DNA from: an uncultured Ruficoccus sp.
GTDB taxonomy: Bacteria > Verrucomicrobiota > Verrucomicrobiia > Opitutales > Cerasicoccaceae
Direction: 5' to 3'
Assembly: GCA_965140785.1 (NCBI GenBank)
Contig: OZ223481.1
Span: 256,001-320,000 of the forward strand
DNA length: 64,000 nt
Position 1 is the stretch's first letter, and each line of letters starts with the position of its first letter. The position numbers and the translations under genes are program-made. The notes beneath the pieces are model-generated. The model searched no databases. It was not told where the DNA came from and saw only the letters and a list, made by a program, of their open reading frames with translations. Shown here piece after piece: positions 23,651 through 43,090 of this stretch.

Positions 23651-24358
23651 TTAGTCAGTGTCCCACAGTTCGTCGTTTGCGGTGAAGCTGGAGTCACCGG
23701 TTTCGGAGGTTACGTGTCCATCAAACCAAAGTACGTTGGCGGTATTTCCCGGGTGGCGGAACGCAGTCTTGAATGGCGCGTTGCTGTCCCAAGCCCCTTC
23801 CCACATGGAAGGCGGGCGAACAAACGGACGCCATTGATCATTGTCCCCCCGTGTGACATCCGTCATGAATACCGTCTGGGCAGGATTGGCCACCACCGTG
23901 TTCTTACGCACAACGACACGTAGCATCGGCCCTAAATCCTTGCTGAAAGTAGAAAGCCAATTGTAGTTGTGGCCGTAGCCGAAAACCTCTGGATTTTCCG
24001 GGCAAATAAAAATCGGCTGAGATTGATAAGAGGGATATGAGCCCTGTGACGTGTCATAATCCAAATAAGGTGCCAAGAGGCCCGTCCAGTGCGTCATGGC
24101 TAGAGGGTCAGACGAGTTGTCGCGCGGATAATACATGGGCAGGATGTCGCCGTTGTGTTCGTTTGTGTACAGCTTGGCCAGCACACCGATTTGCCGGAGA
24201 TTGGATTGGCATTTCGTAGTATTCGAGCGGGCTACAATACTACCGACGACCGGAATAATTATGGCGGCCAAAATCGCAATGCAGGCGATGACCGTTAACA
24301 ACTCGACAAGGGTAAAGGCCTGTTTCGAATATCGGCTATGACACAAGGATGCTGACAT
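23651..24358 (-). CDS. Prepilin-type N-methylation / H-X9-DG (DUF1559-like) protein
   Basis: AFTLVELLTVIACIAILAAIIIP, CQSNLRQIG, FICP, RHPGNTANVLWFDGHV. Confidence 0.92.
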   Translation of the reverse strand: MSASLCHSRYSKQAFTLVELLTVIACIAILAAIIIPVVGSIVARSNTTKCQSNLRQIGVLAKLYTNEHNGDILPMYYPRDNSSDPLAMTHWTGLLAPYLDYDTSQGSYPSYQSQPIFICPENPEVFGYGHNYNWLSTFSKDLGPMLRVVVRKNTVVANPAQTVFMTDVTRGDNDQWRPFVRPPSMWEGAWDSNAPFKTAFRHPGNTANVLWFDGHVTSETGDSSFTANDELWDTD

Positions 24359-24464
24359 GATGGGGTCGCGTTGAACAGGCAGGGCCATTGTACTCGCGGG
24401 ATAGGCGAGCAAGTCTAATTCTTCCCCTCAAAAAAGAGAGAGGGGAGGGGACGCAACGGACAGC

Positions 24465-26039: not shown

Positions 26040-26511
26040 GTGAGACCCTTGGGTGCATTTAAACTCTACCCGCTGCTCGTCCTGTTTTTTTGGCCCGGGG
26101 CAAACCTCCATGCGGCCCGGCATCACCCCGAGTCCTATTACCGGGGCTGGGCCGCTGCCGAACTCTGTGGTAAAACCGAGGTTGTCCTTCCCAACGATAC
26201 CCGCTGCGACATCTTCACGGATCAATACGCGGTCGGAGGTGGACTTCGCCGACAAGTGGGCCGAAGCCCTCGGCCAGTGTCTAAACTAAGCCGCCCAGAC
26301 TAACCCCCAACCGGGCATCGTGCTCATTCTCGAATCCCCCGATGACAAACGCCACCTCGCCCGTCTGCAAGCGATCGTCGAGTACTACCGGCTGCCCGTC
26401 AGCATCATGCCGCTTTACGGTTTTATACCCTCAGCATTTGAACCCAAAAAGATGGAGCCTCCCTGGCTAAAATCCCCACCCGTGCCGACCGACGAGGGTG
26501 CCCGTAGTTGA
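26040..26511 (+). pseudogene. Disrupted PD-(D/E)xK nuclease-like gene with a hydrophobic N-terminus
   Basis: Joined frames read EVVLPNDTRCDIFTDQYAV / EVDFADKWAEALGQCLN * AAQT...GIVLILE. +1 frameshift near 26234 and an in-frame TAA at 26287. Confidence 0.7.
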
Positions 26512-26630: not shown

Positions 26631-26837
26631 ATGAAAACTGCTGTTTTGCCCCTTGTTGTCTTGTTCGCTATCCCGTCTGTCCTGTGTGCTCAGGAGCCCT
26701 CTGGGGGGACTCTGATTGAGATGTCCGGGGTGGGGGGATTTATGCTGACGGCGTACTTGCTGATGTTTTTCGGGCGTAAGAACCCGGACGGAAAGCTGGC
26801 GCGTTTCGCCTCCAGGATTTTCCCCCACAAGCGCTAA
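26631..26837 (+). CDS. Small protein: signal peptide + single TM + basic tail; first gene of the Rhs operon
   Basis: MKTAVLPLVVLFAIPSVLCA|QEPS...FMLTAYLLMFFGRK...; stops 18 bp before the next gene and has an AT-rich upstream region. Confidence 0.6.
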   Translation: MKTAVLPLVVLFAIPSVLCAQEPSGGTLIEMSGVGGFMLTAYLLMFFGRKNPDGKLARFASRIFPHKR

Positions 26838-26855
26838 CCGCGGAAAGGCATCCCC

Positions 26856-29618
26856 ATGTTCCGTGTTAGCGCCGCCTGTCTCGGGCTTTCGCTAGCCCTC
26901 CTTGCAACGCCCCTTTTGGGGCAGGTTTCCTTGCCCTACGAAACGGATTTCGAAGCGGCTTCCGGCTACGGCGTGGATGATCCGCCGAGCGTGGCGCCTT
27001 GGGTCGTAGGCGGCTCGGGGGCCTTGGTGACGAGTGCCGACTCCGCCTCGGCAGCGCAGGGAGTTTTACTCCCGATCGATGAAACAGGATTTTTGCGGGC
27101 GAATTTTTCGAGCAGCCAGGCGGGGGTGGTGACCTTTGTGGATTTCTACCTCAAGCCCATGGCCGGGCCGGTGGAGGAATTGCCGGCGGTTTCGAGCGAT
27201 GTTACCTCCGCGATGACCGGTGCGGCTGAATCCGGCGGCGTCGGCTGGTTTTACGCAGTGGAAGGCGACGGCCTGGGTGGGGGGCAGTGGCAGCAGATCC
27301 CGCGGCCGTTTGCGCTGAGCGACGGTGTATCCACGAACTGGATACGCTTGACTTACCGCCTCGATTATGCGACCAAGACCTGGGATCTCTACCTGGACGA
27401 CGATCTGGTGGCGACCGACTTGGGGTTCGTGGACGATGTGCTGGAGAGTTTGAGCGAATTCCGGCTCAAGGGCGGCGGGCTGGCCCCGGTTTATTTTGAT
27501 TTTTTCTACGCCGGTTATGAGAACCCGCTTTTCCTCGACAGCGACAGCGACGGGATGAGCGACGCCTACGAGAGCGCCAACGGCCTCGACCTCTACGCCG
27601 ACGACCGCTATGGCGACCACGATTTCGATGGCATCACCAATGTCCACGAATTCCTCTACGACCTGGAGGCGGGCAACCCCGACACGGACGGGGACGGTGT
27701 GCACGATGGCTGGGAATTTTCCTTCGGGGGCGACCCGGCGGTGGCGGATAATTACGTGCTCAGCCAGCTGCCCTACGTGGAGGGTTTCGAGAGCCACCCG
27801 GACGCGAACGTCACGAGCGGGGGAGGGTGGTCCTATCAGGGCGGCACCGAGCCGCAACTGAGCAGCGACGAGGCCGCGAACGGCACCCACTCGGTGCTGA
27901 TCAATCCGCTCGGCGCGGGCACGGCGCTCTACAATTTATTCACGGCCACGCCCGACACCATTGTTTGGGTGGACCTGGCGCTCAAGCCCGGAGCGTTGAG
28001 TGAGGAGCCGGCGCTGAGCGCGGCGACCTCGGCGGGTTTTTACTTTGGCGAGGATGGGCGGCTGCGCGTCTTCGACGGGGCGGAGTTGCCCGCTGGCGCT
28101 TGGGAGGCCCTGACGCACGAGGCGGTCGAGATGGACGCCTGGCAGCGCCTGACGGTGCAGCTCAATTACTCCACCCAGCGCTGGGCGATTTATTTGAATG
28201 GCGTGCGGTTGGCTGCGGGGCTCGGCTTCGCCAATCCGGTGCCGTTTTTCCAGTCCTTTCGTGTGACCCAGTCTGAGGGCGGGGAAACTTACCTCGACAA
28301 TGTGCAGGTCAGCTACACCGAGCCGGCTGGGCTCGATAACGATGGAGACGGCTTGACCAATGTTTGGGAAATTGCGGCGGCGTCATATGGCTACGATCCG
28401 GAGAACGCCTACTCGGCGGACCCGACCGGCATGGTACGCGACGATTATTATGACCTCGATGGAGACGGCCTGGGGACGCTGGCCGAACTCGCCGCGGGCA
28501 CGGCGTACACGAACCCCGACACCGATGGCGACGGCGTGCTGGACGGGGCCGAGGCTTCCTTGGGCGAAGACCCGCTGGTGGCGGGAACTTTTAATCAACT
28601 AACCGCCGACAGCAACGACATCTATACGTGGACCGCCGGTTTCGAAACCGCCGAGGGCTACAGCGTGGCCGCGCTCGACGGCCAAGACCTGTGGCGGACG
28701 AACTCCTCGTCAGCGACGGTGACGTCTGCTCAGGCTGAGGGCGGGGCGCAGTCCGTGTCGCTGGAATCCGGCACGGGCGAAGCGGTTACCGCCGAGCAGT
28801 GGCTGGTGGCTCCCTCCGGCGCGGAAGTGGTCTGGGTCAGCTTTTCCTCCAAGCTCGTCGGCGGCGATCTGCCGGACCTGTCAGAGCGCGAAACGCTCGG
28901 AGCGGCTTATTTCACGGCGAGCGAAGCAGGAACGCTCTGCGTTTATGACGGTGCGTCGGCCCAGTGGCAGGACACCGCGCTGGCCGTGGATGCCGCCAGT
29001 TGGGTCCGCTTCGATGTGCGCCTCGACTATGTATCCAAAACCTGGGACATCTGGGTTGAGGGCAACGAAGTCGCCACCGACCTCGGTTTTGCTAATACCG
29101 CGATCACCGCCTTTGCCCGGGTGCGCTTCGAGCAGTTGCGTGCCACTGAGGCCCAGGGCTTTATCGATTCGCTCAGTATTTCCACCGCCATGCCCGCCAG
29201 CCTCTCGCCCTGGCCCCACGTCTCCGATGCCTGGAAACAGCAGATCGTCGATGCCGACCCGAACGACGCCATTACCGACCCCTCGCAGGTGCTGGCCGGA
29301 GACGACTTCGACGGCGACGGCCAGACCAACGAGGAAGAGTTCCGGCAGGGCACATCCCCGACCAGGGCCGATGCCGATGTCCAGTACTACGTCTTCGGCG
29401 ATATCGGCAACGATGTGTACAACGGTCTCAGCCTCTACCCCGGCCAGCCGACCAGCCTGCACGGCCCCAAGGCAACCCTCTCCGGCGCACTAGCCGCCGC
29501 CCCCGATGGCAGCCGCATCCAGATGGAAAGCGCCACCGCCGCCTACGACGAGTCCACCCTCTCGCTCGCAGGCAAAAACCTCACCCTGCGCCCCCACGGC
29601 GACGTCGTCCTGCAATGA
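26856..29618 (+). CDS. Secreted protein with three ConA/LamG-like repeats and TSP3-like DxDxDG calcium-binding repeats
   Basis: Signal peptide. Three units ending WIRLTYRLDYATKTWDLYLD, WQRLTVQLNYSTQRWAIYLN and WVRFDVRLDYVSKTWDIWVE, each followed by DxDGDG repeats. Confidence 0.8.
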   Translation: MFRVSAACLGLSLALLATPLLGQVSLPYETDFEAASGYGVDDPPSVAPWVVGGSGALVTSADSASAAQGVLLPIDETGFLRANFSSSQAGVVTFVDFYLKPMAGPVEELPAVSSDVTSAMTGAAESGGVGWFYAVEGDGLGGGQWQQIPRPFALSDGVSTNWIRLTYRLDYATKTWDLYLDDDLVATDLGFVDDVLESLSEFRLKGGGLAPVYFDFFYAGYENPLFLDSDSDGMSDAYESANGLDLYADDRYGDHDFDGITNVHEFLYDLEAGNPDTDGDGVHDGWEFSFGGDPAVADNYVLSQLPYVEGFESHPDANVTSGGGWSYQGGTEPQLSSDEAANGTHSVLINPLGAGTALYNLFTATPDTIVWVDLALKPGALSEEPALSAATSAGFYFGEDGRLRVFDGAELPAGAWEALTHEAVEMDAWQRLTVQLNYSTQRWAIYLNGVRLAAGLGFANPVPFFQSFRVTQSEGGETYLDNVQVSYTEPAGLDNDGDGLTNVWEIAAASYGYDPENAYSADPTGMVRDDYYDLDGDGLGTLAELAAGTAYTNPDTDGDGVLDGAEASLGEDPLVAGTFNQLTADSNDIYTWTAGFETAEGYSVAALDGQDLWRTNSSSATVTSAQAEGGAQSVSLESGTGEAVTAEQWLVAPSGAEVVWVSFSSKLVGGDLPDLSERETLGAAYFTASEAGTLCVYDGASAQWQDTALAVDAASWVRFDVRLDYVSKTWDIWVEGNEVATDLGFANTAITAFARVRFEQLRATEAQGFIDSLSISTAMPASLSPWPHVSDAWKQQIVDADPNDAITDPSQVLAGDDFDGDGQTNEEEFRQGTSPTRADADVQYYVFGDIGNDVYNGLSLYPGQPTSLHGPKATLSGALAAAPDGSRIQMESATAAYDESTLSLAGKNLTLRPHGDVVLQ

Positions 29619-29646
29619 TACGTTTTTTATTCAACCCACGATCGAT

Positions 29647-30768
29647 ATGAAAAGCTTACTCTCTAGACTGTTGTTCATCCTCTTCATTCCCTTTGCCCTT
29701 CATGCCGATTCCCTCACCGTCGAGGGAGATCTTAACATCGAGGGCTCTCTCCGTATTATCCCGCAGACAGTTCCTGATATTGTTTCTACAGGTATGATGT
29801 ATTTCGACTTATCTACTGGTGAACTCATAGTATATAATGGTGAAAAGTGGATATCGCTTACTGAAACTGCCACTATTATCAATACCTCAGGTGGTATCTA
29901 TTCTCTATCGCTGGGAAAAGATTCATCTGCGAGTGGGGGCAGAGCCATTGCCATAGGCGCGGATGCGATTGCGAGTGGGAATAGCTCAATCGCAATCGGG
30001 CAATATGCTAATGCGGGGGCATCGAATGCTATAGCTTTGGGCTATCATGCCACAGCGAGTGGTAATTATGCTACGGCTTGGGGCGCCGGTCCAGAGGCCA
30101 GTGGTGTGGCTGCTACGGCTTGGGGTTGGACAACCGAGGCAAGTGGTGACTATTCCACAGCTTTTGGACAGAACACAGCAGCAAGCGGTGATTATTCTGC
30201 GACTTGGGGAAACTATTCAGAAGCAAGTGGTGACTACTCCACAGCTTGGGGGGAATGGGGGAGAGCTATAGGTGATTTTGCTACGGCTTGGGGTGCCGCC
30301 ACATATGCCATCGGCGACTATTCCACGGCATGGGGACATCGGACCCATGCTGAGTCGTATTCTTCTAGCGCCCTTGGGTGTTGGAATATTGGTGGCTATA
30401 CTTACTCTGATGATGGCGTTGACACCAATGATGGCGATACTCAGTGGTTCGATTTGGATCCACTCCTTGAAGTCGGAAATGGTGACTACTCAGCGCGCTC
30501 CAACGCCCTGACCGTCATCAAAAACGGCCAGACCACCCTGGAGAATAAGTATTGGGACGAAGAGATGCCCACCGCCATTCCCGCCGACCCGGACACCGCA
30601 CTGAACGGCGACCAGTCCTCCGCCGGCGAAGCCCTCGTCGTCAAAGGCCATACAAACCTGAATGGTAATCTTACAGTTCAAGGGAATGTCAGTATGCCTC
30701 GGCAGGGAGATATCTGGATGGGGGCTTTTGGCAATCCTGAGGATTCGTGGCAGCAAAGCGGCTCCTGA
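29647..30768 (+). CDS. Secreted YadA-head-like (14-aa repeat) beta-roll protein without a beta-barrel anchor
   Basis: Signal MKSLLSRLLFILFIPFALHA; about 12 repeats of type ASGDYSTAWGxxxx; ends PRQGDIWMGAFG. Confidence 0.82.
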   Translation: MKSLLSRLLFILFIPFALHADSLTVEGDLNIEGSLRIIPQTVPDIVSTGMMYFDLSTGELIVYNGEKWISLTETATIINTSGGIYSLSLGKDSSASGGRAIAIGADAIASGNSSIAIGQYANAGASNAIALGYHATASGNYATAWGAGPEASGVAATAWGWTTEASGDYSTAFGQNTAASGDYSATWGNYSEASGDYSTAWGEWGRAIGDFATAWGAATYAIGDYSTAWGHRTHAESYSSSALGCWNIGGYTYSDDGVDTNDGDTQWFDLDPLLEVGNGDYSARSNALTVIKNGQTTLENKYWDEEMPTAIPADPDTALNGDQSSAGEALVVKGHTNLNGNLTVQGNVSMPRQGDIWMGAFGNPEDSWQQSGS

Positions 30769-30860
30769 GTTCAGATACTACAGCTTCCATTTCCACGATT
30801 TCCGTCAAACAATTCAACTGCATCCCTCGTGCTTGATTCAATTTTGCGAAACTACATTCC

Positions 30861-31955
30861 ATGATCCGCCGCTTTCTCCTTTCTTTGATACTCTTCCTTC
30901 TGAGCGCAACCACTTGGGCCGATTCAGAGCCTGCAGCCTATCCCCAGTGGTGGTTAGATAGGGGAGTCGTTAATGCTCAGCCGCCCACTCCAACCGATTT
31001 CAACTATGAGGCTTGGATGCAGGCTAACTATGCCCCCGCCAACCTCGGGCAACTCAAAATGATTGCGAGTGGTGCAAAGGCCGAGCTGGACGCAGTACTC
31101 GCCCCGGTTGGCGGGGCAGGTCCAGTCATTGATAGTGTAGTGAGTTTATTTTCGACTGATCCATCAGATAACTATGCGGTGTTAAATCAAGGGCAGCTAA
31201 AATATATTTCATCGTTGTTCTTTAATAGACTGGGGGATGTCACTTTCAACGGATGGCCTGCCAATTATACGCTAGACTCTAGTACAGGATATCCGTGGAC
31301 GGAATCCGTTACCGATGACGCTCATTATGCGCCTGCGAATACTGGCCAACTAAAGTATCTATTTTTGTGGGATCTCAATGCTTGGGCGGATTCGATAGAT
31401 TACAGTACCATTGATGCAGACGGTGATGGTCTCGGTGATATTTGGGAAATTGCTTATAATCTTAGTCCCTTTGACGATGGGGGTTCTGACAGTATCAATG
31501 GTCCTAATGGAGATCCCGATGGCGATGGGCTTACGAATTTGCAAGAGTATGAGGTGGCCCAAACCTTCGCCAATGCTGCCGATCCATCACTTTTGAGTCC
31601 GCGAGCAAATGATTCAGATGGAGATGGGCGTATTGATGGCGTGGAGGTTGCCGATGGTACGGATCCAACCGATTATTATAATTTAGCATCGCCTGTGTTT
31701 AAGCGTACTCCCGTAGTCGAGGTTCTCTCTGGAGATGACCAGACGGTAGGGCCGGGTGAGATACTGGCTAACGCCATTAGTGTCAAGGTTACCGCCCAAG
31801 AGGATGGCAGCTTGCTCGTAAATGCGCCTCTATGCATCAGTCCTGAAGCTTTAGGTGCCATGGTTGGGGTATTGCCCGATGGCTCTGATTTAAAGGAATC
31901 AATCATCGTTTACACCAACGCCAGTGGGATCGCTACTTTCTACGTTAAGCCATAA
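30861..31955 (+). CDS. Secreted protein with three (N/H)YAxxNxGQLK repeats, TSP3-like repeats and a C-terminal Ig-like domain
   Basis: Signal peptide; NYAPANLGQLK, NYAVLNQGQLK, HYAPANTGQLK; DADGDG/DPDGDG/DSDGDG; SGDDQT...TNASGIAT. Confidence 0.8.
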   Translation: MIRRFLLSLILFLLSATTWADSEPAAYPQWWLDRGVVNAQPPTPTDFNYEAWMQANYAPANLGQLKMIASGAKAELDAVLAPVGGAGPVIDSVVSLFSTDPSDNYAVLNQGQLKYISSLFFNRLGDVTFNGWPANYTLDSSTGYPWTESVTDDAHYAPANTGQLKYLFLWDLNAWADSIDYSTIDADGDGLGDIWEIAYNLSPFDDGGSDSINGPNGDPDGDGLTNLQEYEVAQTFANAADPSLLSPRANDSDGDGRIDGVEVADGTDPTDYYNLASPVFKRTPVVEVLSGDDQTVGPGEILANAISVKVTAQEDGSLLVNAPLCISPEALGAMVGVLPDGSDLKESIIVYTNASGIATFYVKP

Positions 31956-32003
31956 GGCGGTCATTATCGCTACTGTTCCTAAAAATACTTTTATTCCTTC
32001 GCT

Positions 32004-35000
32004 ATGAATTGGACTGCTACCCTATTAACTGTTGCTTGTTGCGCACCGTTGATATCCCAATCACTGCTCGCTGACAGCCTAGTGGCCACGGCCCCTACCG
32101 AGTCTGTCGGGTCGAAATACCGGAAAATCGGACTCAATGGCTATCCGATGCCAGATCAGAAGCCGCAGAATGAGGCGGAAACTGATTATCAGGATGAGGA
32201 AACCTATATCGATGCGCTAGATCTCACATTGCGCCACAGTGTAACGGATATTTATATTCCCATTCCCGGCAGTGACCTATCGCTATCAGTGCGAAGAAAT
32301 TACAGACCGGAAACGTGGAGTGACCCAGAGGCGCAGTACTTTCTACCCGGTGAGGCCCCTGAGGATGCTTTCGGTGCTTGCTGGTCGACCAATTTGACGC
32401 CTCATGTCAAGATGGAGGCTACGCAAAGCTGCTTCGGCACAAGTAGCAGCTATAGTTTCACCCGGTACATTACAGTGGTTGATGAAAATGGGGCATCGCA
32501 TCGGTTTCTCATGCTGCTTCCTTCTGGAAATAGCTATGAGTTTTGGACTCAAAGCGTACAAAGTCCTGAAGGTTGGTGGATGACCTTTGATTTGAACACA
32601 ATACCAGACGATGCGCTTTTTTACCCCTATCCTTCTTCTGATGAGGCCTTGGATACTCTGCAAAGTAAATTGACCTATGATCCAAATGCGGAAGAACTTA
32701 CTTTTACAAAGAAATACGGGACGACTATTGTTTTTTCAGATAGTGGGTTGGGGCTCGAGGATCAGTTGAAATATACTGAAGAGGAGAATTATCTAGGGAA
32801 CGCAATTGATCAGTTTGGAATCACCAGACAGCAACTTGGTGATGTTTCTAATCACCCAAAGTTTGTCGAACCATTTGGTTCTATCAATCTAGCTCGTGGC
32901 CCGTCTCCAGTTTCATCCATTACGAGGAAGTCGTATCGTTATTTTAGGGCAGTATCTATTCAGGATCGCAATGGAAATTTCCTAAATTATTCTTATGATT
33001 CGGATAATTATACTCTGGTTCCAAATCACATATTTCTTAACGAGTCTATATTTCATGCGATCACGGTCCATCTGTCGCCAGGGAATACATTGCCTATATT
33101 AAGTGTTGAAGATCCATTGGGTAATGTAATAAGTTATGTATACAATGAAATTGGGTATACTTACATGGAAGCTAATGTAAGTTATGATAGGCCAATTGCT
33201 GTGCTAGATTATGTCGAAAAATCAGGCCCGGATGGTATAGAATGTAAGACAGATTATGACTACGTTTACAGCTTGGAGGCGGACCAAACACCACAGTACC
33301 TACAACCAATACGCGCTACAGGAAGCTTGAATCCTAAAGCTTATTGGAAGGAGCTTCCTGCCAGTCATATAGACATTGAGTCCATATCACAGATTGTGCC
33401 GGACGGCGCAGATGATGTTGAAGAGTATGAATACGCTTTTGAGTATGTGTTCAATGACCATATGGAGTCCTATGAAATAAATGATTCACCATATTCGCCT
33501 TTTATCGGTTACTATCAGTCCATTGGCCTTCCATCCCAAGTGTCGGCAGTCACCCTGCCCAATGGTTCGGAAGCAACATTTACATCTTATGGTCAGGTGA
33601 AGGCGGGTTTTGCGCACGGCGCCGGTGTAGAAACATTCGTTGATGGATACTTAGTGCCGAATGTGACTATCGTGGGTGATCGCGAAACTGTTGTTATCGA
33701 TACGGAAGGCAATGAACGGACATATCGATTTAAAAATTACGACTACATCAAATTGTACGAATATTTTACGGCTATCCCCAATTACCGTAACTTAAGAACC
33801 CCGCCTACGATCCTGTTTTATGAACTGATGGAGATCGTCCATCCGGGTAACCTTGTCGAGAAAGTTGTCTATGATAGTGAAGTTGGTAGCATGCCTATTG
33901 AGGTTTACGATGTTTACGGAAATAAAACTACTTTTGAATACGGTGAGCCTATCGAGGCTAATACGACTGTCCTGGGGGTAAACGGACAGAATAATACTTT
34001 TTCTGCCTACAGCCCCGACCCAACAAAGCAAATCAATGCGCTGGATGATGAGCAGGTCTTTGCCTACGATGTGGATCTGGATGGTGTCGCGCTGCATGCC
34101 CCTGCGGATTCATACCATCTGATGACAACGTTCATCGACGAGGAAAACCGCATAACATATACTCCTGTCGATGCATTGGGGCGTCGTGAGACTCAGGAAA
34201 TATATCAGCCGGATGGCTCAGGCGGTCATGAGCTTGTCCAGCGAACCCAGTATGAATATGGGCAAGACTTTGGTGGTATTGTCAAATACAAGGGTGTGGT
34301 GACGAGAGAGACCTTGGAGTCGCTTCCCGGGGATCCTGATTGGGCGGAGGATTTGGTAACCGAGTACACCTTGTACGATGAGGGGGAGGCGAATGGCTTT
34401 CCGGGTAAGATAAAGGAAATGACTGTCGATCCGGGAGGGCTGAATCTCAAGACAGTTTATACCTATGATGCGAACGGCAATCGGACATCGATGACGTCGC
34501 CACGTGCTTTTGATACCGCCGATCCGCTCTATGGGGGAAATTTTACGACCTACTATGTGTATGATGCCCGAAATCGCTTGACGGATATTGTTTATCCGCC
34601 GGCCTCAAGTGCGACTGATATGGGCGCGCCTCGCACGACCTATGTCTATGATTGGCGTGGGAAACAGGTTGGGGTGATTGACGAGGAGGGGGGCGTCACG
34701 GTTAAGCACTATGACGCACTGGGACGGCAAATTAAGGAGATTGTCGTCATGGGGCCTGCGTCCGGTTTTGATACGAGTGACCCCCAGACGTTTCTGTCAT
34801 ACACTCCCGATCAAGACGGGGTGATGCCAGACGATATCGTGACCTCGATGACGTATAATAATTTAAATGCAAAGCTGACGGAGACTGATCCGAATGGGAA
34901 CGTGACCGAGTTTTTTTATGACGATTTAAACCGCGTCATCGCCACCCGAAAGAGCACTGTCCGGGAAGTTGATTATACCAATGCGCAGGATCGTAATGTT

Positions 35001-38000
35001 CAGCCCATCACGTGGTTTTACTACGGGGAAAATAGCGGTTCGGGATCGATTTTTAAGGGGGAATCCTTCAAGCCAACTCATACGATTGATATGCGTGGCT
35101 ATCTGACGGTGGCCGAGTACGACGAGCTTTATCGATCGACGGCGGTTGCCCAGCAGTATGATCATCCGGTTAATATTACATCGCTTGATCCGCATGTCTT
35201 TCCATTAACCCCTCCAAGTATCGGTAGTCTGGCAGCCGCTGACTATGCTGTGACTACTTACACCTATGATGATGTCGGTAACCCCTTAACGGTTACGGAC
35301 GATTTAGGTAAGACGACAACGACACAGTACGATGCGCTTAATCGTCCAGTGAAAGTTATTTTCCAAGATACTTCTGAAGCTGAAACCAGGTACACATCCA
35401 CCGGGCTGAAGTATGAAAATGAAGATGAGCTAGACCGTTTGACGACAACGGAGTATGACGCAGCAGGACGAGCTGTTGCTGTCCTTCAACCGACGGTGTT
35501 CGATGCTGCCGCTGGCCAAGACGACACTCCGGAGACCACACAGGCCTATGATGCCAATGGCAATATGATTGCCATGACCAACCCATTGGAGGCCACTTGG
35601 AACTATGAATATGATGTGCGCGATCGCCGTATCAAAGAAATATTACCCGCGGTCGATTACATCAATGAGGCCGGAGGCTGGAGTGACGATAATCCTGTTC
35701 GGCCGGAGATTGAAACGACCTACGATAACGTAGGAAACGTGATTGCCGTCACTGATCCGCGCGATAAAACAACCCACACCCGCTACGACCCTGCGAAGCG
35801 ACCGATTTTTGTCATTTCGCCGTTGGTGGCTCTGGCCGACTCGAGCTCGCTTCGTCCGGTGGCGATTACCGAGTATGACCTCAACGGGAACATTCTTTAC
35901 CAGAAAACGGGTAGCTTGTCCGCTGGGGCTGATCCTGCTGAGGATACGCCTTCCGAGGTGCGGACAGAGGTTACGAACACCTGGGATGCGCTGAACCGGC
36001 TCACTGCCACAGAGGATGCGAATGCGATCGTGGTGCAAAATACCTACGACCTGGCCGGGAACCTGACGTCTGTCACAGACGGGGAGGAGCAGGTGACGAA
36101 ATTCGAATACGATGGGCTCAACCGCAATACCGTCACCGAGTACGCCGATGGCGAGCAGAAGGTTGTTGCGTTTAATGGGGTTAATCAGGTCACGCGCACG
36201 GATGAAAACGGGGTCGTCACCCGCTATGGCTACGATGACCGTCACCGCCTGGAAACAGTCGATTACGAGGACGATAGCTCCGTTGACAGAAGTTACACCT
36301 ACGACCTGGTAGGTAATATCCTCGGCGTGGAGGAGTCCGGTGACCATGGCGATTTGCGGAAGGTGAAGTATGTCTATGACGGTCTTAACCGCATTGGTGG
36401 GGAGAAGTCGGCCGGGCTCTGGCACGTGTACCGGTATGATTTGGCGGGTAACAGGTTGTTTGCGGGATACGGGGCTGCCCTGAGCAGTGATCCGGCTACC
36501 GTGGAGGCTGCTTACCAGGTGTCCTCGTCCGAGTTTGATACGCAGCTTCGCTCGACCTATGACGCGTTGAATCGCACCGCCACGATCTATGAGGATACTG
36601 ATGGTGACGGCACCTACACGACCGGCGAGCGGGAGAGTGGCTACCGTTATGACCTGGCGGGAAATATCCGGCAGAAGCTTCAGGCTAACGGGCACATCGT
36701 GCTCAAAACCTACGATGCGCTCGGGCGCGCCTCGGTCATCACGGGGCCCAATGGCACCGATACGCAGCCCCTCTACCGTTACGCTAACTTTTACGATATC
36801 TACGGCAACCTCAAGCGCATCGAGGAAACCTACCCCAGTGCGGCTGCGAAGATCGATGACCGCACGGTGACCAACACCTACGACGCGTCTAATCGCCTGG
36901 AGGTCGAGTCCATCACCCAGGGGAGCGACACGATTACCACGACCTACGCCTATGACGACGCGAACAACCGCGTGCTGCGCGAAGTGACGACCAACGAGAC
37001 TGTCGATGAGCGCAAGCGCTACGTGTATGAGAACGACCTGAACCAGCTCACCTACTGGTATGAGGACTGGGACGACGATGGCGCCTGGGATGAGGACACG
37101 GAGGTCAAGGTCGGCTTCACCTACGACGACAATGGCAACCGCGTCACGAGTACGCGGGTCGATGGCTCGTCCACGACCACGGTCACCTATGGCTATGACT
37201 GGGAAAACCGCCTGCTGAGTTTGGCTGAGGAGAAGCTGGTCTCCAATCAGGTCAACCTGCACGCCGGCACGCTGGCCACCGGGGAGCCGACGGCTGTCGT
37301 GACCTATCACTTTGTCGAAAATCAGGCCTATGCCTACGCCTACGATTATCGTACCCGGCGCGTGCTCCGGGACGAGTCCGGGGCGGACGGGGATTTGACG
37401 TATATTGTTTTCTCGGGCGGCACCAGCGCCCAGGAGTACACCGAGGCCGGGAGCGTGCCCGGTCTGGACGGAGCTGACACGCTGGCTGTCCAGTATGTGC
37501 GCGGGAGCGACTATGGGGGTGGCGTGGGGGGCATTCTTTATACCTTGCGCTCGGGGTCGGCCTCCTTTAAGCATTACAACAGTCGGGGCGACGTTGTTGC
37601 CGCGACCGATGGTTCTGGTTCTTTGACTTATCAGGCGGCTTACGAAGCCTACGGCAAGCACGGGGATACGTCTTCGTCGCAGGAGTGGGGCGATACGAGC
37701 GACCGCCAGCAGGCCAACACCAAAGACGAAGACCCGACGGGACTCCTGAACGAAGGCTTCCGCTACCGCGACCTGGAAACGGGCACCTTCATCACCCGCG
37801 ACCCACTCGGTTTCGTTGACGGCCCCAATGTCTACACCTACGTCAACCAGAATCCCTGGACCAAGTTCGACCCACAAGGGCTGGAGAAAAAGAAAGACAA
37901 AAAGAAACCAGAGCAGGAGGCTGATGGTAGTTCAAGCACTCAGGATGTGAAGACTGATAGTGTTGATGCGGGTACAAATCAATCTCCATCGGACTCAACG

Positions 38001-38615
38001 GATGCTACATCTGAAAAGGTCGGTAAGTTTAACGCTGCTACATCTGAGGCGACGAAAGCAAATGATTCCTCGGAATCTGCACGTTCTGAGGCAGAGCCAT
38101 GGATAAATGAAGTCCAGTTGTTTGGCGGGATAACAGGTACGATTGGGAAATTTATGTATGCTCATGGCGAGACTAACTTGGGAGTCTCAGTGCCGACATA
38201 TTCTGATGGCATTTTAAATACCATTTTGGATACAAAGTTATTTTTTCATGCTCAAGGAGCACTTATGGGTGGCGTTGGACCAGCTGCTGAACTTGGTGGG
38301 CAATTTGGAGGGGGACTGTCCTTCGATGATGTGGAATCAGGTTTATCTACGTTTAATACCATTCATTGTGAGGGACAAGGGGGTGTTGGCAGTACTTTTG
38401 GTATGGCCGTAGATGTCGACATTGAAAATACAGCTTTTTCAGGAGGAAAAGGAAGAGTTGAGGTTGGTGCTTCTGCTTATGGTGCTGCTGGGGCAGCAAA
38501 AAATGTTATGGTAGTAACCCCATCCTTAAGGGAGATATCGGATGCGTCTATAAAGGCACAAACCCAAATACCACTCATGTTACCATTGTGGAATCTGTTT
38601 GGAGGGGATGAGTGA
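32004..38615 (+). CDS. rhs: Rhs/YD-repeat polymorphic toxin with an N-terminal signal peptide
   Basis: Many YDxxGN/YDxLNR repeats; core RYRDLETGTFITRDPLGFVDGPNVYTYVNQNPWTKFDPQGL; AT-rich 243-aa C-terminal tip from 37884. Confidence 0.95.
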   Translation: MNWTATLLTVACCAPLISQSLLADSLVATAPTESVGSKYRKIGLNGYPMPDQKPQNEAETDYQDEETYIDALDLTLRHSVTDIYIPIPGSDLSLSVRRNYRPETWSDPEAQYFLPGEAPEDAFGACWSTNLTPHVKMEATQSCFGTSSSYSFTRYITVVDENGASHRFLMLLPSGNSYEFWTQSVQSPEGWWMTFDLNTIPDDALFYPYPSSDEALDTLQSKLTYDPNAEELTFTKKYGTTIVFSDSGLGLEDQLKYTEEENYLGNAIDQFGITRQQLGDVSNHPKFVEPFGSINLARGPSPVSSITRKSYRYFRAVSIQDRNGNFLNYSYDSDNYTLVPNHIFLNESIFHAITVHLSPGNTLPILSVEDPLGNVISYVYNEIGYTYMEANVSYDRPIAVLDYVEKSGPDGIECKTDYDYVYSLEADQTPQYLQPIRATGSLNPKAYWKELPASHIDIESISQIVPDGADDVEEYEYAFEYVFNDHMESYEINDSPYSPFIGYYQSIGLPSQVSAVTLPNGSEATFTSYGQVKAGFAHGAGVETFVDGYLVPNVTIVGDRETVVIDTEGNERTYRFKNYDYIKLYEYFTAIPNYRNLRTPPTILFYELMEIVHPGNLVEKVVYDSEVGSMPIEVYDVYGNKTTFEYGEPIEANTTVLGVNGQNNTFSAYSPDPTKQINALDDEQVFAYDVDLDGVALHAPADSYHLMTTFIDEENRITYTPVDALGRRETQEIYQPDGSGGHELVQRTQYEYGQDFGGIVKYKGVVTRETLESLPGDPDWAEDLVTEYTLYDEGEANGFPGKIKEMTVDPGGLNLKTVYTYDANGNRTSMTSPRAFDTADPLYGGNFTTYYVYDARNRLTDIVYPPASSATDMGAPRTTYVYDWRGKQVGVIDEEGGVTVKHYDALGRQIKEIVVMGPASGFDTSDPQTFLSYTPDQDGVMPDDIVTSMTYNNLNAKLTETDPNGNVTEFFYDDLNRVIATRKSTVREVDYTNAQDRNVQPITWFYYGENSGSGSIFKGESFKPTHTIDMRGYLTVAEYDELYRSTAVAQQYDHPVNITSLDPHVFPLTPPSIGSLAAADYAVTTYTYDDVGNPLTVTDDLGKTTTTQYDALNRPVKVIFQDTSEAETRYTSTGLKYENEDELDRLTTTEYDAAGRAVAVLQPTVFDAAAGQDDTPETTQAYDANGNMIAMTNPLEATWNYEYDVRDRRIKEILPAVDYINEAGGWSDDNPVRPEIETTYDNVGNVIAVTDPRDKTTHTRYDPAKRPIFVISPLVALADSSSLRPVAITEYDLNGNILYQKTGSLSAGADPAEDTPSEVRTEVTNTWDALNRLTATEDANAIVVQNTYDLAGNLTSVTDGEEQVTKFEYDGLNRNTVTEYADGEQKVVAFNGVNQVTRTDENGVVTRYGYDDRHRLETVDYEDDSSVDRSYTYDLVGNILGVEESGDHGDLRKVKYVYDGLNRIGGEKSAGLWHVYRYDLAGNRLFAGYGAALSSDPATVEAAYQVSSSEFDTQLRSTYDALNRTATIYEDTDGDGTYTTGERESGYRYDLAGNIRQKLQANGHIVLKTYDALGRASVITGPNGTDTQPLYRYANFYDIYGNLKRIEETYPSAAAKIDDRTVTNTYDASNRLEVESITQGSDTITTTYAYDDANNRVLREVTTNETVDERKRYVYENDLNQLTYWYEDWDDDGAWDEDTEVKVGFTYDDNGNRVTSTRVDGSSTTTVTYGYDWENRLLSLAEEKLVSNQVNLHAGTLATGEPTAVVTYHFVENQAYAYAYDYRTRRVLRDESGADGDLTYIVFSGGTSAQEYTEAGSVPGLDGADTLAVQYVRGSDYGGGVGGILYTLRSGSASFKHYNSRGDVVAATDGSGSLTYQAAYEAYGKHGDTSSSQEWGDTSDRQQANTKDEDPTGLLNEGFRYRDLETGTFITRDPLGFVDGPNVYTYVNQNPWTKFDPQGLEKKKDKKKPEQEADGSSSTQDVKTDSVDAGTNQSPSDSTDATSEKVGKFNAATSEATKANDSSESARSEAEPWINEVQLFGGITGTIGKFMYAHGETNLGVSVPTYSDGILNTILDTKLFFHAQGALMGGVGPAAELGGQFGGGLSFDDVESGLSTFNTIHCEGQGGVGSTFGMAVDVDIENTAFSGGKGRVEVGASAYGAAGAAKNVMVVTPSLREISDASIKAQTQIPLMLPLWNLFGGDE

Positions 38616-38818
38616 TGAAAACACTTATATCAGCATATATATTCTCTGGATGTCCGTTTTTGCTTATCGCTGTTTTTATTCTTATTGCTGGCGATGGTAA
38701 GCAATTAGGGATTGCAGCTTTATTCTTGGTGATTTTTTTAATTTTCCCATTGATTCCTTATTCTAGCGCTAGGCGTAAGATCAAGAATGATAAGAATAAC
38801 ACCAACGGCAGAACCTAA
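38615..38818 (+). CDS. Putative immunity protein, two TM helices
   Basis: ATG overlaps the rhs stop (TGATG); AT-rich; two hydrophobic segments and a basic tail. Confidence 0.72.
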   Translation: MKTLISAYIFSGCPFLLIAVFILIAGDGKQLGIAALFLVIFLIFPLIPYSSARRKIKNDKNNTNGRT

Positions 38819-38872
38819 CCCTATGGGTGCCAGACGAACCCGAAGAGGGGGAACCAGAAGGGGTCAGAACCA

Positions 38873-38952
38873 GAAGGGGTCATGTCAATAATTTAAATGT
38901 TGGTTGCTGTCTGACTTGTGTAGTTATTCTAAATTATTGACATGACCCCTTC
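38873..38952. repeat. 80-bp palindromic element, copy 1 (perfect 23-bp arms)
   Basis: GAAGGGGTCATGTCAATAATTTA - 34 nt - TAAATTATTGACATGACCCCTTC. A 16-bp tandem duplication GAACCAGAAGGGGTCA (38851-38882) overlaps its left end. Confidence 0.92.
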
Positions 38953-39139
38953 GGGTTCAACATCTACGTTCATGGCCGGCTTCGGTGTTGGATACAACAC
39001 CGAATTCAACGCTGATGCTAGTGGCGACTTAAGTCTTTCTGGGCATTATCTTACGATGCCATACGAGTGCGGAAGCCTTGCTGGATCAATTATGTCAGAG
39101 TCAAAAAAGAAATTTTCGGATAATGAGGATGATGAGTGA
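38942..39139 (+). pseudogene. Orphan toxin C-terminal fragment
   Basis: Gly-rich frame with an acidic end (NEDDE*), coupled to a membrane protein gene by the same GATGAGTGATGAA junction seen at rhs/immunity. Its 5' end is cut by the palindrome. Confidence 0.6.
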
Positions 39140-39453
39140 TGAATATATTGTTATATACGCTGATGCTTTTTTTTATGGGGTGGGTGCTCGTTTTTAAGGT
39201 TATTAGATTGAATGCATCTTTGTTTGGTGTTGTGTCTAATGTTCTTATGATGAATATAGCCGCGCTTTTGTGGGTTATTATTGGGTCTGTGTTAAAATTT
39301 CCTATATATACATTTAATGGGACGTTGAGTTCTTATGACTTCGTTGAGCCAGGACTGATTTTGTGTGTTATACTAACTCCTGTTAGCGTTATTTCTTTGG
39401 CTTATTTCAAATGGAAGAAGGGTGACGAGTTTACTATTCGAAAAAAGAAATGA
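39139..39453 (+). CDS. Putative orphan immunity protein, three TM helices
   Basis: Very AT-rich, three hydrophobic segments, KKK tail, TGATG coupling with GAGG upstream. Confidence 0.7.
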   Translation: MNILLYTLMLFFMGWVLVFKVIRLNASLFGVVSNVLMMNIAALLWVIIGSVLKFPIYTFNGTLSSYDFVEPGLILCVILTPVSVISLAYFKWKKGDEFTIRKKK

Positions 39454-39501
39454 TTACGGCTTGATGCCCCCCTTCGCCTTCCGTCCCGTCCCTTGAGGCT
39501 T

Positions 39502-39633
39502 GCCATACGGGCTGGCACAACTCGTCATTATGTCAAAATTGCGTCGTGGGAGAGTGAGATTGGCGAACGAATCGACGTGGCCGCGAGGCCGAGCAACTTG
39601 GGCATAATGGTCCGTTGTGCGCGAGCGTATGGC
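39502..39633. repeat. attC-like imperfect inverted repeat
   Basis: GCACAAC (39515-21) pairs with GTTGTGC (39614-20); inner CATTATGTCAAAATTGC / GCAACTTGGGCATAATG; outer GCCATACG / CGTATGGC. Confidence 0.6.
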
Positions 39634-39722
39634 CCGTTCTTTTGTTTGGGGGCGTGGCGGATGGCGGCAGGGGCTGCTCCACGGAATGGGGGTTGAATCC
39701 CCCCTCTCTTATGGGAAACCCT

Positions 39723-39799
39723 GAAGGGGTCATGTCAATAATTTAGAATAACTACACAAGTCAGACAATAACCAACATTTAAATTATTGACATGACCCC
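39723..39799. repeat. Palindromic element copy 2, inverted relative to copy 1
   Basis: Equals the reverse complement of 38876-38952 except for two adjacent spacer substitutions (GC to AT). Confidence 0.92.
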
Positions 39800-40019
39800 G
39801 TGTTATTTGACCAGCACGGTTTCGCTTTCCTCCCGGGTCATTTCGGAGGGAAGCTCCAGCGGGAGTTTAATTCGCTTATTCCCTGATCGAGCCAAATGTA
39901 AAAATGTTGCCCAAAAACAGGGGGTTTTTCTGGATTTACCCGGATTTCGTTGGACTTGGGGTCTTGAGGGGTGTTGCCTTGCAAGTCCCTATTTATCAGG
40001 GAAATCCCCAGAAATAAAA

Positions 40020-40097
40020 TGGTCGGGGCGATAGGATTCGAACCTACGACCCTCTGCTCCCAAAGCAGATGCGCTAACCAGGCTGCGCTACGCCCCG
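40020..40097 (-). tRNA. tRNA-Pro (TGG)
   Basis: Minus strand CGGGGCGTAGCGCAGCCTGGTTAGCGCATCTGCTTTGGGAGCAGAGGGTCGTAGGTTCGAATCCTATCGCCCCGACCA: cloverleaf, TGG anticodon, encoded CCA. Confidence 0.98.
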
Positions 40098-42027: not shown

Positions 42028-42969
42028 TCAACGGAAAGCGCGGGTGCGGTCGCGGTTTTTCACCTGATGCTTGGGGCCGACCACTTCCGGGTCCTCGAAG
42101 TCGGGCGTACGGGGCGCCGCAGGGAGCATGTTGGTGCCGGTCTCGGTGGTGGCGGTCAGAAAGATCATCACACGTTGGCTGGTGGACTGGCGGGCTTCTT
42201 CCAGAGGGATCAGGGGCACACCTTGGCGGGCGTTGCCGTCCTGAGTGGTGGCGGAGCCACCGATGGCGATGGTGCCGCCATTGGGGACGACGACGTGGGT
42301 GGCGGCGGTGCGGGTCGTGATGTCTTCGCCCTTGCCACTGCGGCTGACAGTCGGGGTGAGCGCGACATCGATCGAGCCGTCGGGCTTGACACGCGGCTGG
42401 ACGGCCAGCATCTGCCCGACCGGCACGCGTTCATAGACCGTGTCGGTCATGCCCCAGCGGTTGGTGCTCTCGGCCAGGGTGACGAACTTGTCCGTGGAAA
42501 TCTGCAAATAGGCGGGGCTGCCGCTCATGGTGGTGACCGTCATGTAGTTCTCGATGCGTCCGTTCTGCTGGCGGTCGAGCAGGTCCAGCACCACCTCGAA
42601 CTGCGTCTGGTCCATCACCGTGTAGCCCGAGAGTTGCAGGCCGTAACGCTGCTCCAGCGCTGTATCCACCTCGGTCACATACACGGTCAGGGCGACCTGC
42701 TTGAGCGCCCCGTCGAGTTCGGCCAGGATTTTTTCCAACTGCTCAAGCTGGGCGGACGTGCCGGTGGCGACGATGGCATTGGTCCGGGCGTCGAGGCTGG
42801 CACTGCCGCCGGGGCTGACCATCTCCTGGGCCAGCGAGAGCAGCTCGGCCGCGTCGCGGTTCTCCAGCTTGAAGATCTTCGCCTCGGTCGTGCCCTGGGC
42901 GTTGGCGCTCAGAGCGAACAAAATCATGGCGAGGGCGGTCAGACAGAGGGAGCGCATGGAAAGAGTCAT
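42028..42969 (-). CDS. Short secretin-like protein (NolW/N3 + secretin domain)
   Basis: Signal peptide; DARTNAIV...LAELD...QVALTV (N3 domain); LAVQPRV...VVPNGGTIAIGG...MIFLTA. Confidence 0.8.
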   Translation of the reverse strand: MTLSMRSLCLTALAMILFALSANAQGTTEAKIFKLENRDAAELLSLAQEMVSPGGSASLDARTNAIVATGTSAQLEQLEKILAELDGALKQVALTVYVTEVDTALEQRYGLQLSGYTVMDQTQFEVVLDLLDRQQNGRIENYMTVTTMSGSPAYLQISTDKFVTLAESTNRWGMTDTVYERVPVGQMLAVQPRVKPDGSIDVALTPTVSRSGKGEDITTRTAATHVVVPNGGTIAIGGSATTQDGNARQGVPLIPLEEARQSTSQRVMIFLTATTETGTNMLPAAPRTPDFEDPEVVGPKHQVKNRDRTRAFR

Positions 42970-43090
42970 AGATTCGTAAACGGGTAAATTCAAGCGTTAG
43001 GCGCTTTTCGGTTATCAGGGGAGGTAGCTTCCCGGCGATCAACACTTGAACTCATGCGCGTTTAAGCTTATCTACTAGCGCCTTTTCACC

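Follow-up and report, generated by a model that had tools for sequence, protein, structure and literature searches.

A signal-peptide-bearing Rhs protein and its travelling partner genes in a type VI secretion-less member of the Verrucomicrobiota suggest a hitherto undescribed means of equipping cells with Rhs toxins

Results

Gene content of the locus

Our study examined a run of genes that encodes a giant Rhs protein and its neighbours in an uncultured Ruficoccus sp. of the phylum Verrucomicrobiota. The window, that is the whole stretch of DNA analysed, comprises 64,000 nt of contig OZ223481.1 (assembly GCA_965140785.1, positions 256,001 to 320,000), and all positions below are those of the window. 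Every gene of the run lies on the plus strand. P2 (26856–29618, 920 aa) encodes an exported TSP3-repeat protein and is an occasional member of the cassette, P3 (29647–30768, 373 aa from MKSLL) encodes an exported protein that has the YadA-type head of trimeric adhesins but no membrane anchor, and P4 (30861–31955, 364 aa) encodes an exported protein with a signal peptide, a module termed P4N here, TSP3 motifs and an Ig-like domain. They are followed by the gene for Rhs, a YD-repeat shell protein of 2203 aa (32004–38615), and by P6 (38612–38818, 68 aa), whose product has two predicted transmembrane segments and is a candidate immunity protein. The Rhs stop and the P6 start share 4 nt. A longer P3 frame, from 29506, would overlap P2.

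The original prediction for this locus described five tightly packed, co-oriented genes with a gene for two transmembrane segments behind them. P2, P3, P4, Rhs and the last of these open reading frames (ORFs) were found as described, but P1 (26631–26837, plus strand, 68 aa) was unsupported as a gene. P1 has a signal-peptide-like N-terminus and no family match in Pfam or NCBIfam, no counterpart of it was found upstream of the P2-like genes in five related loci (L013, L014, L018, L022 and L026), and it is overlapped by an equally long ORF in antisense direction. Its reading as a PEP-CTERM-like mini-protein was dropped, as no conservation was found. Its status as a gene is doubtful and it is not counted in the system. 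The intergenic gaps from P1 through P2, P3 and P4 to Rhs are 18, 28, 92 and 48 nt.

The Rhs protein, its signal peptide and its tip

The Rhs protein matched RHS_repeat over eight stretches (Pfam, E 1.6e-48) and YD_repeat_2x (NCBIfam, E 7.4e-25). The Rhs-associated core TIGR03696 was located at aa 1880–1960, with 45.5 bits against a cut-off of 32.5 (NCBIfam), and is closed by DPQGL at aa 1956–1960 (nt 37869–37883). Its closest sequence matches in the PDB are Tse5, RhsA and Tse15, and TccC is a further relative there; TccC and YenC match the Rhs-associated core. The protein is thus a genuine YD shell that includes both the Rhs-associated core and the DPxGL site, and its C-terminal tip is unique. 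About 1900 residues separate the signal peptide from DPQGL, which is roughly double the length of a type VI secretion system (T6SS) Rhs shell.

The protein begins with a predicted signal peptide (aa 1–24), followed by an N-block at aa 33–175 (GPRYRKIxLNG...), which is its best-conserved part, with 44–54% identity among homologues and a weak match to DUF6531. Homologues from Chthoniobacter, Roseimicrobium, Prosthecobacter and others align across aa 1–800. Signal peptides were scored by a home-made heuristic that combines hydropathy with the -3/-1 rule, and this found an N-terminal h-region in all five proteins, P1 to P4 and Rhs, as had been proposed, with that of Rhs the weakest. Signal-like N-termini were found in 19 of the 21 RHS proteins scored, comprising the window Rhs and 20 homologues from cassette loci, one of these without P4N. 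Cleavage of the window Rhs is predicted between LLA and DS, and in homologues in which P4N and Rhs are fused, similarity to the window Rhs begins at residues 25–33, right after this site. The position of the fusion junction, the proportion of RHS proteins with signal-like N-termini and the alignment of homologues over aa 1–800 together support the reading of the Rhs N-terminus as a signal peptide, in line with the original prediction.

The region behind the core (aa 1961–2203, nt 37884–38612) consists of a charged, Ser/Thr-rich linker of about 70 residues and a tip of 170 residues. The tip contains 17.6% Gly, and its small-xxx-small zipper motifs are 4 times denser than those of the core. A search of the ESM Atlas with the tip returned low or unspecific scores only. 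P6, with its two hydrophobic segments, is translationally coupled to Rhs. Because the tip is rich in Gly and zipper motifs and the coupled ORF behind it encodes two transmembrane segments, the most economical guess would be that the tip is membrane-active and that P6 is its membrane immunity protein.

P4 and the P4N module

P4 consists of a signal peptide, P4N at aa ~25–180, three TSP3 motifs at aa 185–262 and an Ig-like domain at aa 283–364. The TSP3 region carries three calcium-type DxDxDGxxDxxE motifs, and its match to TSP3_bac (E 9e-4) falls below the Pfam cut-off. P4N opens with a PxWW motif, which is followed by three NxGQxK motifs 48–51 residues apart. Profile–profile comparison of the three segments (hhalign) gave a repeat probability of 98%, and the module is a triplicated unit of ~48 aa with the core NYAPaNlGQLK. 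Across 104 members no Pfam family covered P4N, and no NCBIfam model did so either.

HMMER searches against 1.84 billion cluster representatives returned 1842 representatives with P4N at E ≤1e-3 and 778 at E ≤1e-10. The module is almost always N-terminal, and the proteins carrying it range from 108 to 4293 aa among the 150 best matches listed. Its distribution covers Verrucomicrobiota and Lentisphaerota. In an even sample of the phylum it was present at E ≤1e-8 in 31 of 301 genomes and 26 of 146 genera, and a pattern scan of species-representative genomes yielded 53 P4N loci from Opitutales, Chthoniobacterales, Verrucomicrobiales, Akkermansiaceae and Lentisphaerota. Two contigs that carry P4N bear the labels Microthrixaceae (Actinomycetota; L041) and Aggregatilineales (Chloroflexota; L061). 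The P4N of L041 is nearly identical to one in a metagenome-assembled genome (MAG) of Verrucomicrobiales (L037), and both contigs are probably mis-binned rather than products of inter-phylum transfer.

An AlphaFold2 model of P4, built from 104 sequences, had a mean pLDDT of 84, with values of 92–98 over P4N. In the model the N-domain is helical and compact, the TSP3 region forms a flexible linker, and aa 283–364 fold as a beta-sandwich. Foldseek found nothing in the PDB at E ≤0.001, and the sole matches spanning the whole N-domain were the S-layer homology (SLH) domains SpaA-SLH and Sap-SLH (E 0.3–1, TM 0.30–0.37). A structure search independent of Foldseek placed Sap-SLH (6bt4_A) first for the N-domain (Z 5.5, rmsd 5.6 Å, 109 residues), with SpaA-SLH at Z 4.6. 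The C-domain resembles the Ig-like domains of macroglobulin, invasin and intimin (Z 5–6). An ESM Atlas search with P4N returned low or unspecific scores only. In the full-text literature (subscription journals and supplements lay outside this scope), neither the NxGQLK module nor its link to RHS was found described, and the same holds for a cassette of YadA-head and RHS genes. P4N merits a family model of its own, and would be usable as a marker for polymorphic toxins and immunity genes in Verrucomicrobiota and Lentisphaerota.

The YadA-head protein P3 and the TSP3 protein P2

P3 matched YadA_head over six stretches (Pfam, E 1.7e-18), and its profile matched the heads of trimeric autotransporter adhesins in the PDB, namely BpaC (3e-35) and YadA (3e-12), and also EibD and UspA1. 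P3 is homologous to obligately trimeric adhesin heads. A C-terminal YadA membrane anchor was sought, and no anchor family matched at E ≤0.01; the last 106 aa had no match even at E ≤5, which agrees with the earlier description of an anchorless YadA-head protein. The extreme C-terminus, QGDIxMGxFGN, is almost invariant in the alignment of homologues. No fusion of P3 to P4N was seen among the 171 proteins examined. YadA-head and P4N proteins are both multi-copy families.

P2 has six calcium-type DxDxDGxxDxxE motifs and matches TSP3_bac (Pfam, E 1.6e-9), as anticipated for its TSP3 part. It had also been thought to contain three ConA-like modules, and this was not upheld: searched as three separate modules, P2 matched no Laminin_G/ConA family even at E ≤5, and it has no sequence relative in the PDB. 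At this threshold Pfam gave only a weak TSP3 match over the P2 modules and the C-termini of P2 and P3. The C-terminal part of P2 (aa 788–920, ~130 aa) matches directly upstream of P3 in L013, L014 and L018, and in L026 the match spans aa 685–920. On the 5' side of P1 and P2, a small ORF at 26320–26511 (plus strand) contains the motif RHLxRLQAxxExYRLPxxIMPL, which recurs in an ORF upstream of a P2-like gene in the same genus (L018, G003:C62, oriented 1543–1809). This small ORF might encode a minor regulator of the cassette or serve as its leader.

Conservation of gene order and fusions

A search of 41 relatives with P4, P3 and Rhs aa 1–800 found the order P3, P4-like gene, Rhs in Cerasicoccus arenae (G011) and in four further genomes (G012, G013, G003 and G008). 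Across 14 annotated loci from relatives, eight of them picked by the P3–P4 pair alone, the consensus cassette comprises a P2-like TSP3 protein of ~950 aa, an exported protein of ~250 aa, a P3-like protein, a P4N protein (260–1800 aa), a signal-peptide RHS protein and small ORFs. The window lacks the ~250-aa protein, which is encoded between the P2-like gene, where present, and P3 in the loci of Cerasicoccus arenae and of G012 (L013 12618–13376, minus strand; L014 6900–7658, plus; L023 6931–7659, plus). Among the eight loci picked by P3 and P4, four have RHS_repeat above the Pfam cut-off downstream (L019, L020, L025 and L026), one falls just under it (L023, 21.8 against 22 bits), two reach contig ends (L018 and L021) and one has no downstream RHS (L024).

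P4N genes precede RHS genes far above chance, with the RHS gene always downstream on the same strand. This was found in 18 of the 53 loci picked by P4N alone, and in 12 of the 30 with at least 8 kb of downstream sequence; three of the 18 (L030, L031 and L066) coincide with loci from which the queries had been built, which leaves an independent count of 15/50. In none of the 53 loci did an RHS gene lie upstream of P4N or on the opposite strand (356 kb scanned upstream and 398 kb downstream). A P3-like gene was found upstream of P4N in 21 of these loci and downstream in two. The expectation that accessory genes accompany Rhs in other genomes is thereby borne out for P3 and P4, in this order and in several genera.

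Furthermore, P4N and Rhs occur in one ORF of 1670–3070 aa in L015, L035, L041 and L059. L014 also has a single P4N–Rhs ORF, but with a later in-frame TAG, and RHS_repeat was additionally found within three P4N representatives (P0060, P0080 and P0099). There are at least five independent P4N–Rhs fusions, with the join exactly where the predicted signal peptide of the window Rhs ends. Short P4N proteins (220–460 aa) are encoded just before a separate signal-peptide RHS gene in L040, L046, L049, L058, L065 and L070, and in L064 a 305-aa ORF lies between the two. L070 is a contig of an uncultured Akkermansia, in which the P4N gene is followed by the RHS gene.

P4N and Rhs without each other

In loci without RHS, the P4N protein or the product of the adjoining gene often ends in another toxin-type domain, including TNT (L047, E 3.6e-14) and Amidase_3 (L033, E 3.9e-20). 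A lipase-like DUF900 hydrolase domain was found on P4N proteins of L042, P0039 and P0106, and Peptidase_M10 or Reprolysin-like domains were found in L036, L039 and L055, that of L039 (Reprolysin-like) lying in the gene adjoining the P4N gene. The TNT (NAD+ glycohydrolase toxin) domain ends a 1566-aa P4N protein of a Chthoniobacterales MAG (L047 9902–14602, plus strand), with no obvious immunity gene among the next ORFs. Toxin-ended P4N proteins are followed by ORFs of ~250–375 aa, mostly with hydrophobic, signal-peptide-like N-termini. When 23 such followers were compared (19 from toxin-ended loci), only five pairs were alike, and dissimilar, apparently exported followers are the pattern expected of periplasmic immunity proteins.

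RHS genes were likewise found without P4N, standing alone in G009 and G013, and preceded in G007 by a gene for a TSP3-rich protein of 2583 aa. In G001, of the same genus as the window, two signal-peptide RHS genes without P4N each have a homologous exported protein of ~280–300 aa upstream (L080 9931–10776 and L081 12511–13410, both on the minus strand), with the shared stretch PLxPxEADAIVRxQ. This protein may represent another kind of accessory factor for Rhs routed through Sec. Giant RHS-repeat frames also occur in relatives (8082, 7678 and 6756 aa; G014:C7:164297-166954, G007:C1:4264990-4266861 and G012:C7:700376-702247). They have no P4N match in their vicinity and are Rhs proteins of another architecture.

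Absence of T6SS genes and of other export machinery

The source genome (G000; 4.36 Mb, 50 contigs, 90.85% complete) contained no match to TssC (PF05943), Hcp (PF05638), PAAR (PF05488) or VgrG/Phage_GPD (PF05954). Only two of the 41 relatives had TssC, G006 and G015, both of them low-quality assemblies without P3, P4 or Rhs N-terminal matches. No cassette-bearing relative has TssC, including G007, a single contig with 97% completeness and several cassettes, and no Hcp, PAAR or VgrG gene was found in any of them. The lack of a T6SS, proposed earlier from the window, therefore extends to the genome and to its cassette-bearing relatives.

ShlB (PF03865, CdiB-type) also gave no match, although its control was positive in no genome either. 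Pfam listed no haemagglutinin family for the cassette proteins. No conserved membrane or outer-membrane component was seen beside the cassettes in the 14 annotated and 53 P4N loci. The source genome holds five secretin genes in all. One of them lies 3.4 kb downstream of the cassette (42028–42993, minus strand) and encodes an unusually short protein of 321 aa that matches Secretin and Secretin_N; no secretin like it was seen among the cassette genes of the other annotated loci.

Surroundings of the cassette

The G+C content is 0.44–0.51 within the gene run and 0.60–0.66 in its flanks (window profile, 30001–40000), and a tRNA-Pro(TGG) gene lies at 40020–40097 (minus strand), ~570 nt past the last small ORF of the cassette. 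The low G+C content and the adjacent tRNA gene suggest that the region is a horizontally acquired island. A scan of the locus for promoters and terminators gave site counts not above those of shuffled sequence. With P3, P4N and RHS as tblastn queries, no further match was found elsewhere in the source genome. Metagenome contigs that align to the stretch gave no information on function.

Behind P6 lies a pair of small ORFs (38942–39453, plus strand), a 65-aa Gly-rich ORF (38942–39139) overlapping a 105-aa ORF with three hydrophobic, putative transmembrane segments (39136–39453). The arrangement resembles an orphan toxin tip with its immunity gene, but this reading is speculative, and the tip idea was dropped because BLASTP showed no similarity of the 65-aa ORF to the Rhs tip. 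A prepilin-type N-methylation protein is encoded 2.2 kb upstream of the cassette (23651–24412, minus strand).

Discussion

Interpretation of the locus

To our knowledge, few bacterial toxins are as widespread as Rhs cocoons, and in bacteria with two membranes their delivery is understood only via the T6SS or as Tc toxins. The locus described here suggests a hitherto undescribed means of equipping cells with Rhs toxins, because a bacterium without a T6SS encodes a giant Rhs protein behind an ordinary export signal, beside two partner genes that travel with such toxins, or are fused to them, in many relatives. We consider it probable, with some reserve, that the locus is a T6SS-independent, Sec-dependent Rhs polymorphic toxin–immunity cassette, belonging to a class that is restricted to Verrucomicrobiota and Lentisphaerota and marked by P4N. 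The window Rhs is a split member of this class, and its key unit is the N-terminal module with its frequent trimeric partner, not a set of five dedicated genes. The original prediction of a dedicated apparatus was right in direction and too narrow, and is thus partly supported: P3 and P4N do travel with Rhs, but P1 is unsupported, P2-like genes are occasional, P4N is a general N-terminal module of many large secreted proteins, RHS is absent from about half of the P4N loci, and neither P4N nor P3 accompanies many signal-peptide RHS genes of the same bacterial family.

In the mechanism that we propose, P3, P4 and Rhs would each be exported by Sec. P4 would correspond to the carrier or anchor half of a toxin of WapA type, detached as a separate protein, with the Ig-like end of P4 re-associating with the conserved N-block of Rhs, and the three-repeat P4N would hold the complex on the cell envelope, possibly docked on trimeric P3. 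On contact, or after release in vesicles, the shell would autocleave at DPQGL and the Gly-rich tip would attack the membrane of a neighbour, while the two-transmembrane P6 would protect the producer. The binding of P4 to Rhs, the anchoring and the passage of the cassette products through the outer membrane are all inferred from sequence.

Several observations weigh against a Sec-dependent, P4N-marked cassette. The source genome is only 91% complete. The Rhs signal is the weakest of the five and atypical, with an h-max of 2.26 and no K/R in its n-region, and the deposited gene call (P0151, 1816 aa) uses an internal Met and leaves out the first 387 residues of the Rhs frame (32004–33164). It thereby loses the signal peptide and the conserved N-block, both of which homologues retain, probably because gene calling went wrong in the low-G+C 5' part. 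The tip had no homologue among proteins of 1211–3856 aa, where only the window protein itself was found, or among PDB sequences, and P6 had no family match above cut-off in Pfam or NCBIfam. P2-like genes accompany only part of the loci, and P1 lies outside the conserved set. P4N is also joined to non-toxin cargo (LamG, TSP3, Ig, fn3, RCC1 propeller and beta-helix/pectinesterase), RHS is absent from 18 of the 30 well-flanked P4N loci, and signal-peptide RHS genes without P4N or P3 occur in the same bacterial family (L080–L083). In a tree of 52 P4N domains, made quickly and with weak support, the RHS link is scattered, with 14 changes, no fewer than in shuffles, a pattern that fits modular recombination.

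The envelope-anchoring role given to P4N meets a further difficulty, as its likeness to SLH domains is weak, with a Z below the level that the tool deems meaningful for helical domains. The SLH hidden Markov model (PF00395) matched none of the 41 relatives (controls were positive in four genomes), and no SLH match was found among the 104 P4N proteins. With structural scores below the meaningful level and no SLH match in relatives, P4N is, as modelled, not an SLH domain, and shares with it only the three-repeat architecture typical of envelope anchors. Lastly, a folded shell of ~240 kDa would have to pass through the outer membrane, for which the candidate routes are one of the five secretin systems, a P4N-tagged route or release in vesicles.

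Alternative explanations

A bolder version of the proposal, which we put forward only tentatively, is that P4N and the anchorless trimeric P3 form a new apparatus for contact-dependent toxin delivery or display in the Planctomycetes–Verrucomicrobia–Chlamydiae (PVC) superphylum. The three QGDIxMG tails of P3 would dock on the three NxGQLK repeats of P4N, giving a surface spike that bears Rhs cocoons and other toxins (NADase, amidase, lipase-like and protease), fused or bound. If this is true, the spike would be the functional counterpart of contact-dependent inhibition (CDI) or of the T6SS in bacteria with neither, and could explain strain exclusion in Verrucomicrobiota such as Akkermansia.

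It is less likely, in our judgement, that P4N is an export tag or adaptor rather than an anchor, marking cargo for an outer-membrane route of the PVC superphylum, with short P4N proteins carrying a separate Rhs and with P3 as part of the conduit or tip. Such a tag would resemble the type IX secretion C-terminal domain, and a similar route has been proposed for TANFOR in Bacteroidetes. P4N does sit directly behind the signal peptide on very diverse cargo, many short P4N proteins immediately precede separate signal-peptide RHS genes, the fused-or-adjacent pattern is that described for TANFOR, MIX and FIX (PMC7073777), and one of the five secretin genes lies close by. However, no membrane or outer-membrane component is conserved beside the cassettes, the nearby secretin does not recur in them, and the compact three-repeat helical fold of P4N, with its weak likeness to SLH, fits a binding module better.

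A vesicle route, in which Rhs and its partners are periplasmic or outer-membrane cargo that leaves in outer-membrane vesicles, the vesicles would deliver the toxin with no need for a dedicated display apparatus, and P3 and P4 only aid packing or targeting, seems to us distinctly unlikely. Sec export alone puts proteins in the periplasm, an uncultured Akkermansia contig bears the P4N–RHS pair, and Rhs proteins are enriched in the inhibitory extracellular vesicles of Akkermansia muciniphila clade AmII (PMC11923206). The report on these vesicles itself states that direct evidence for a role of Rhs is lacking, nothing in the sequence favours vesicle loading, and the adhesin-like, calcium-binding domains of extracellular type (TSP3, Ig and YadA head) suggest exposure on the surface instead.

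That only Rhs and P6 form a unit, with P2 to P4 being ordinary adhesins of a horizontally acquired surface-protein island, can nearly be set aside: the low G+C content, the end of the region at tRNA-Pro, the multi-copy nature of the P4N and YadA-head families and the existence of RHS genes without these neighbours would all suit it, but genera and orders agree in the order and strand of the genes, RHS lies downstream of P4N in 18 loci and upstream in none, and at least five independent P4N–Rhs fusions share a precise junction.

Taken together, a Sec-dependent, P4N-marked cassette makes T6SS-independent Rhs delivery in two-membrane bacteria testable. P4N, with ~1800 cluster representatives, and its recurrent partner P3 provide handles for finding and dissecting such a route, and two culturable Cerasicoccus species carry cassettes, which makes genetic, fractionation and competition work feasible; Cerasicoccus arenae KCTC 12870 has two cassettes. 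The P4N–RHS contig of Akkermansia offers a link to the gut, where Rhs-rich vesicles of one A. muciniphila clade inhibit another by a mechanism given as unknown in the report (PMC11923206).

Comparison with known systems

The T6SS Rhs effectors Tse5, RhsA and Tse15 share with the window Rhs the YD shell, the core with DPxGL autocleavage and an encapsulated variable toxin, and the tip of Tse5 is described as membrane-active too (PMC10684867). They differ in that a signal peptide here takes the place of the PAAR or clade domain, with no PAAR, VgrG, Hcp or TssC in the genome. The TcB–TcC cocoon of Tc (ABC) toxins is similar in that the length before the cleavage site resembles that of a TcB–TcC fusion. 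In contrast to Tc toxins, the window Rhs is followed by genes for membrane proteins of immunity type; Pfam listed only RHS_repeat for it, with no SpvB or TcdB mid-domain, and no TcA-like gene was present among the annotated neighbours, no genome-wide search for TcA having been made. The MafB proteins of Neisseria are Sec-dependent polymorphic toxins of a Gram-negative host whose passage through the outer membrane is likewise not understood, and they have no RHS shell and an unrelated N-terminal domain.

Akkermansia has been reported to hold many Rhs/WapA genes (PMC8920140), and its Rhs-rich vesicles inhibit a rival clade; the study of these vesicles assumes T6SS export without presenting evidence for it and does not demonstrate a causal role of Rhs (PMC11923206). 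Sec-routed RHS toxins as such are already catalogued, as seen in WapA and in Zhang et al. 2012 (PMC3482391), whose tables bring together RHS repeats, trafficking by the type II secretion system and Verrucomicrobia for several toxin families.

The TANFOR toxins of Bacteroidetes are described as having a phylum-restricted N-terminal marker, a toxin that is fused or encoded by the next gene, immunity downstream and an outer-membrane step that is hypothesized only (PMC7073777), all of which resembles the class described here. This likeness is one of organization, not of sequence: no TANFOR match to P2 to P4 or Rhs was found in NCBIfam, assuming that it includes TIGR02542. Our class belongs to other phyla, its P4N is a triplicated 48-aa repeat that is also present on many non-toxin proteins, and it has a recurrent YadA-head neighbour and a strong link to RHS shells.

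WapA of Gram-positive bacteria, known from Bacillus subtilis and Streptococcus suis (PMC12704120), is the experimental model for Rhs toxins of this kind. It likewise has a Sec signal peptide and no T6SS, and its parts are an N-terminal envelope-binding region, RHS repeats and a polymorphic C-terminal toxin, with an immunity gene downstream; the fused P4N–Rhs proteins follow the same overall order. The WapA of S. suis is also reported to need upstream accessory genes (PMC12704120). The host here differs in having two membranes, so that the outer membrane also has to be passed, and in place of a sortase or SecF-like protein the partner is an anchorless YadA-head protein. P4N is unrelated in sequence to LysM or wall-binding repeats, its sole whole-domain structural neighbours being SLH domains (Z 5.5 and 4.6). 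The counterpart of the envelope-binding domain of WapA would be P4N, supplied in cis in the fused homologues and split off as P4, in trans, in the window.

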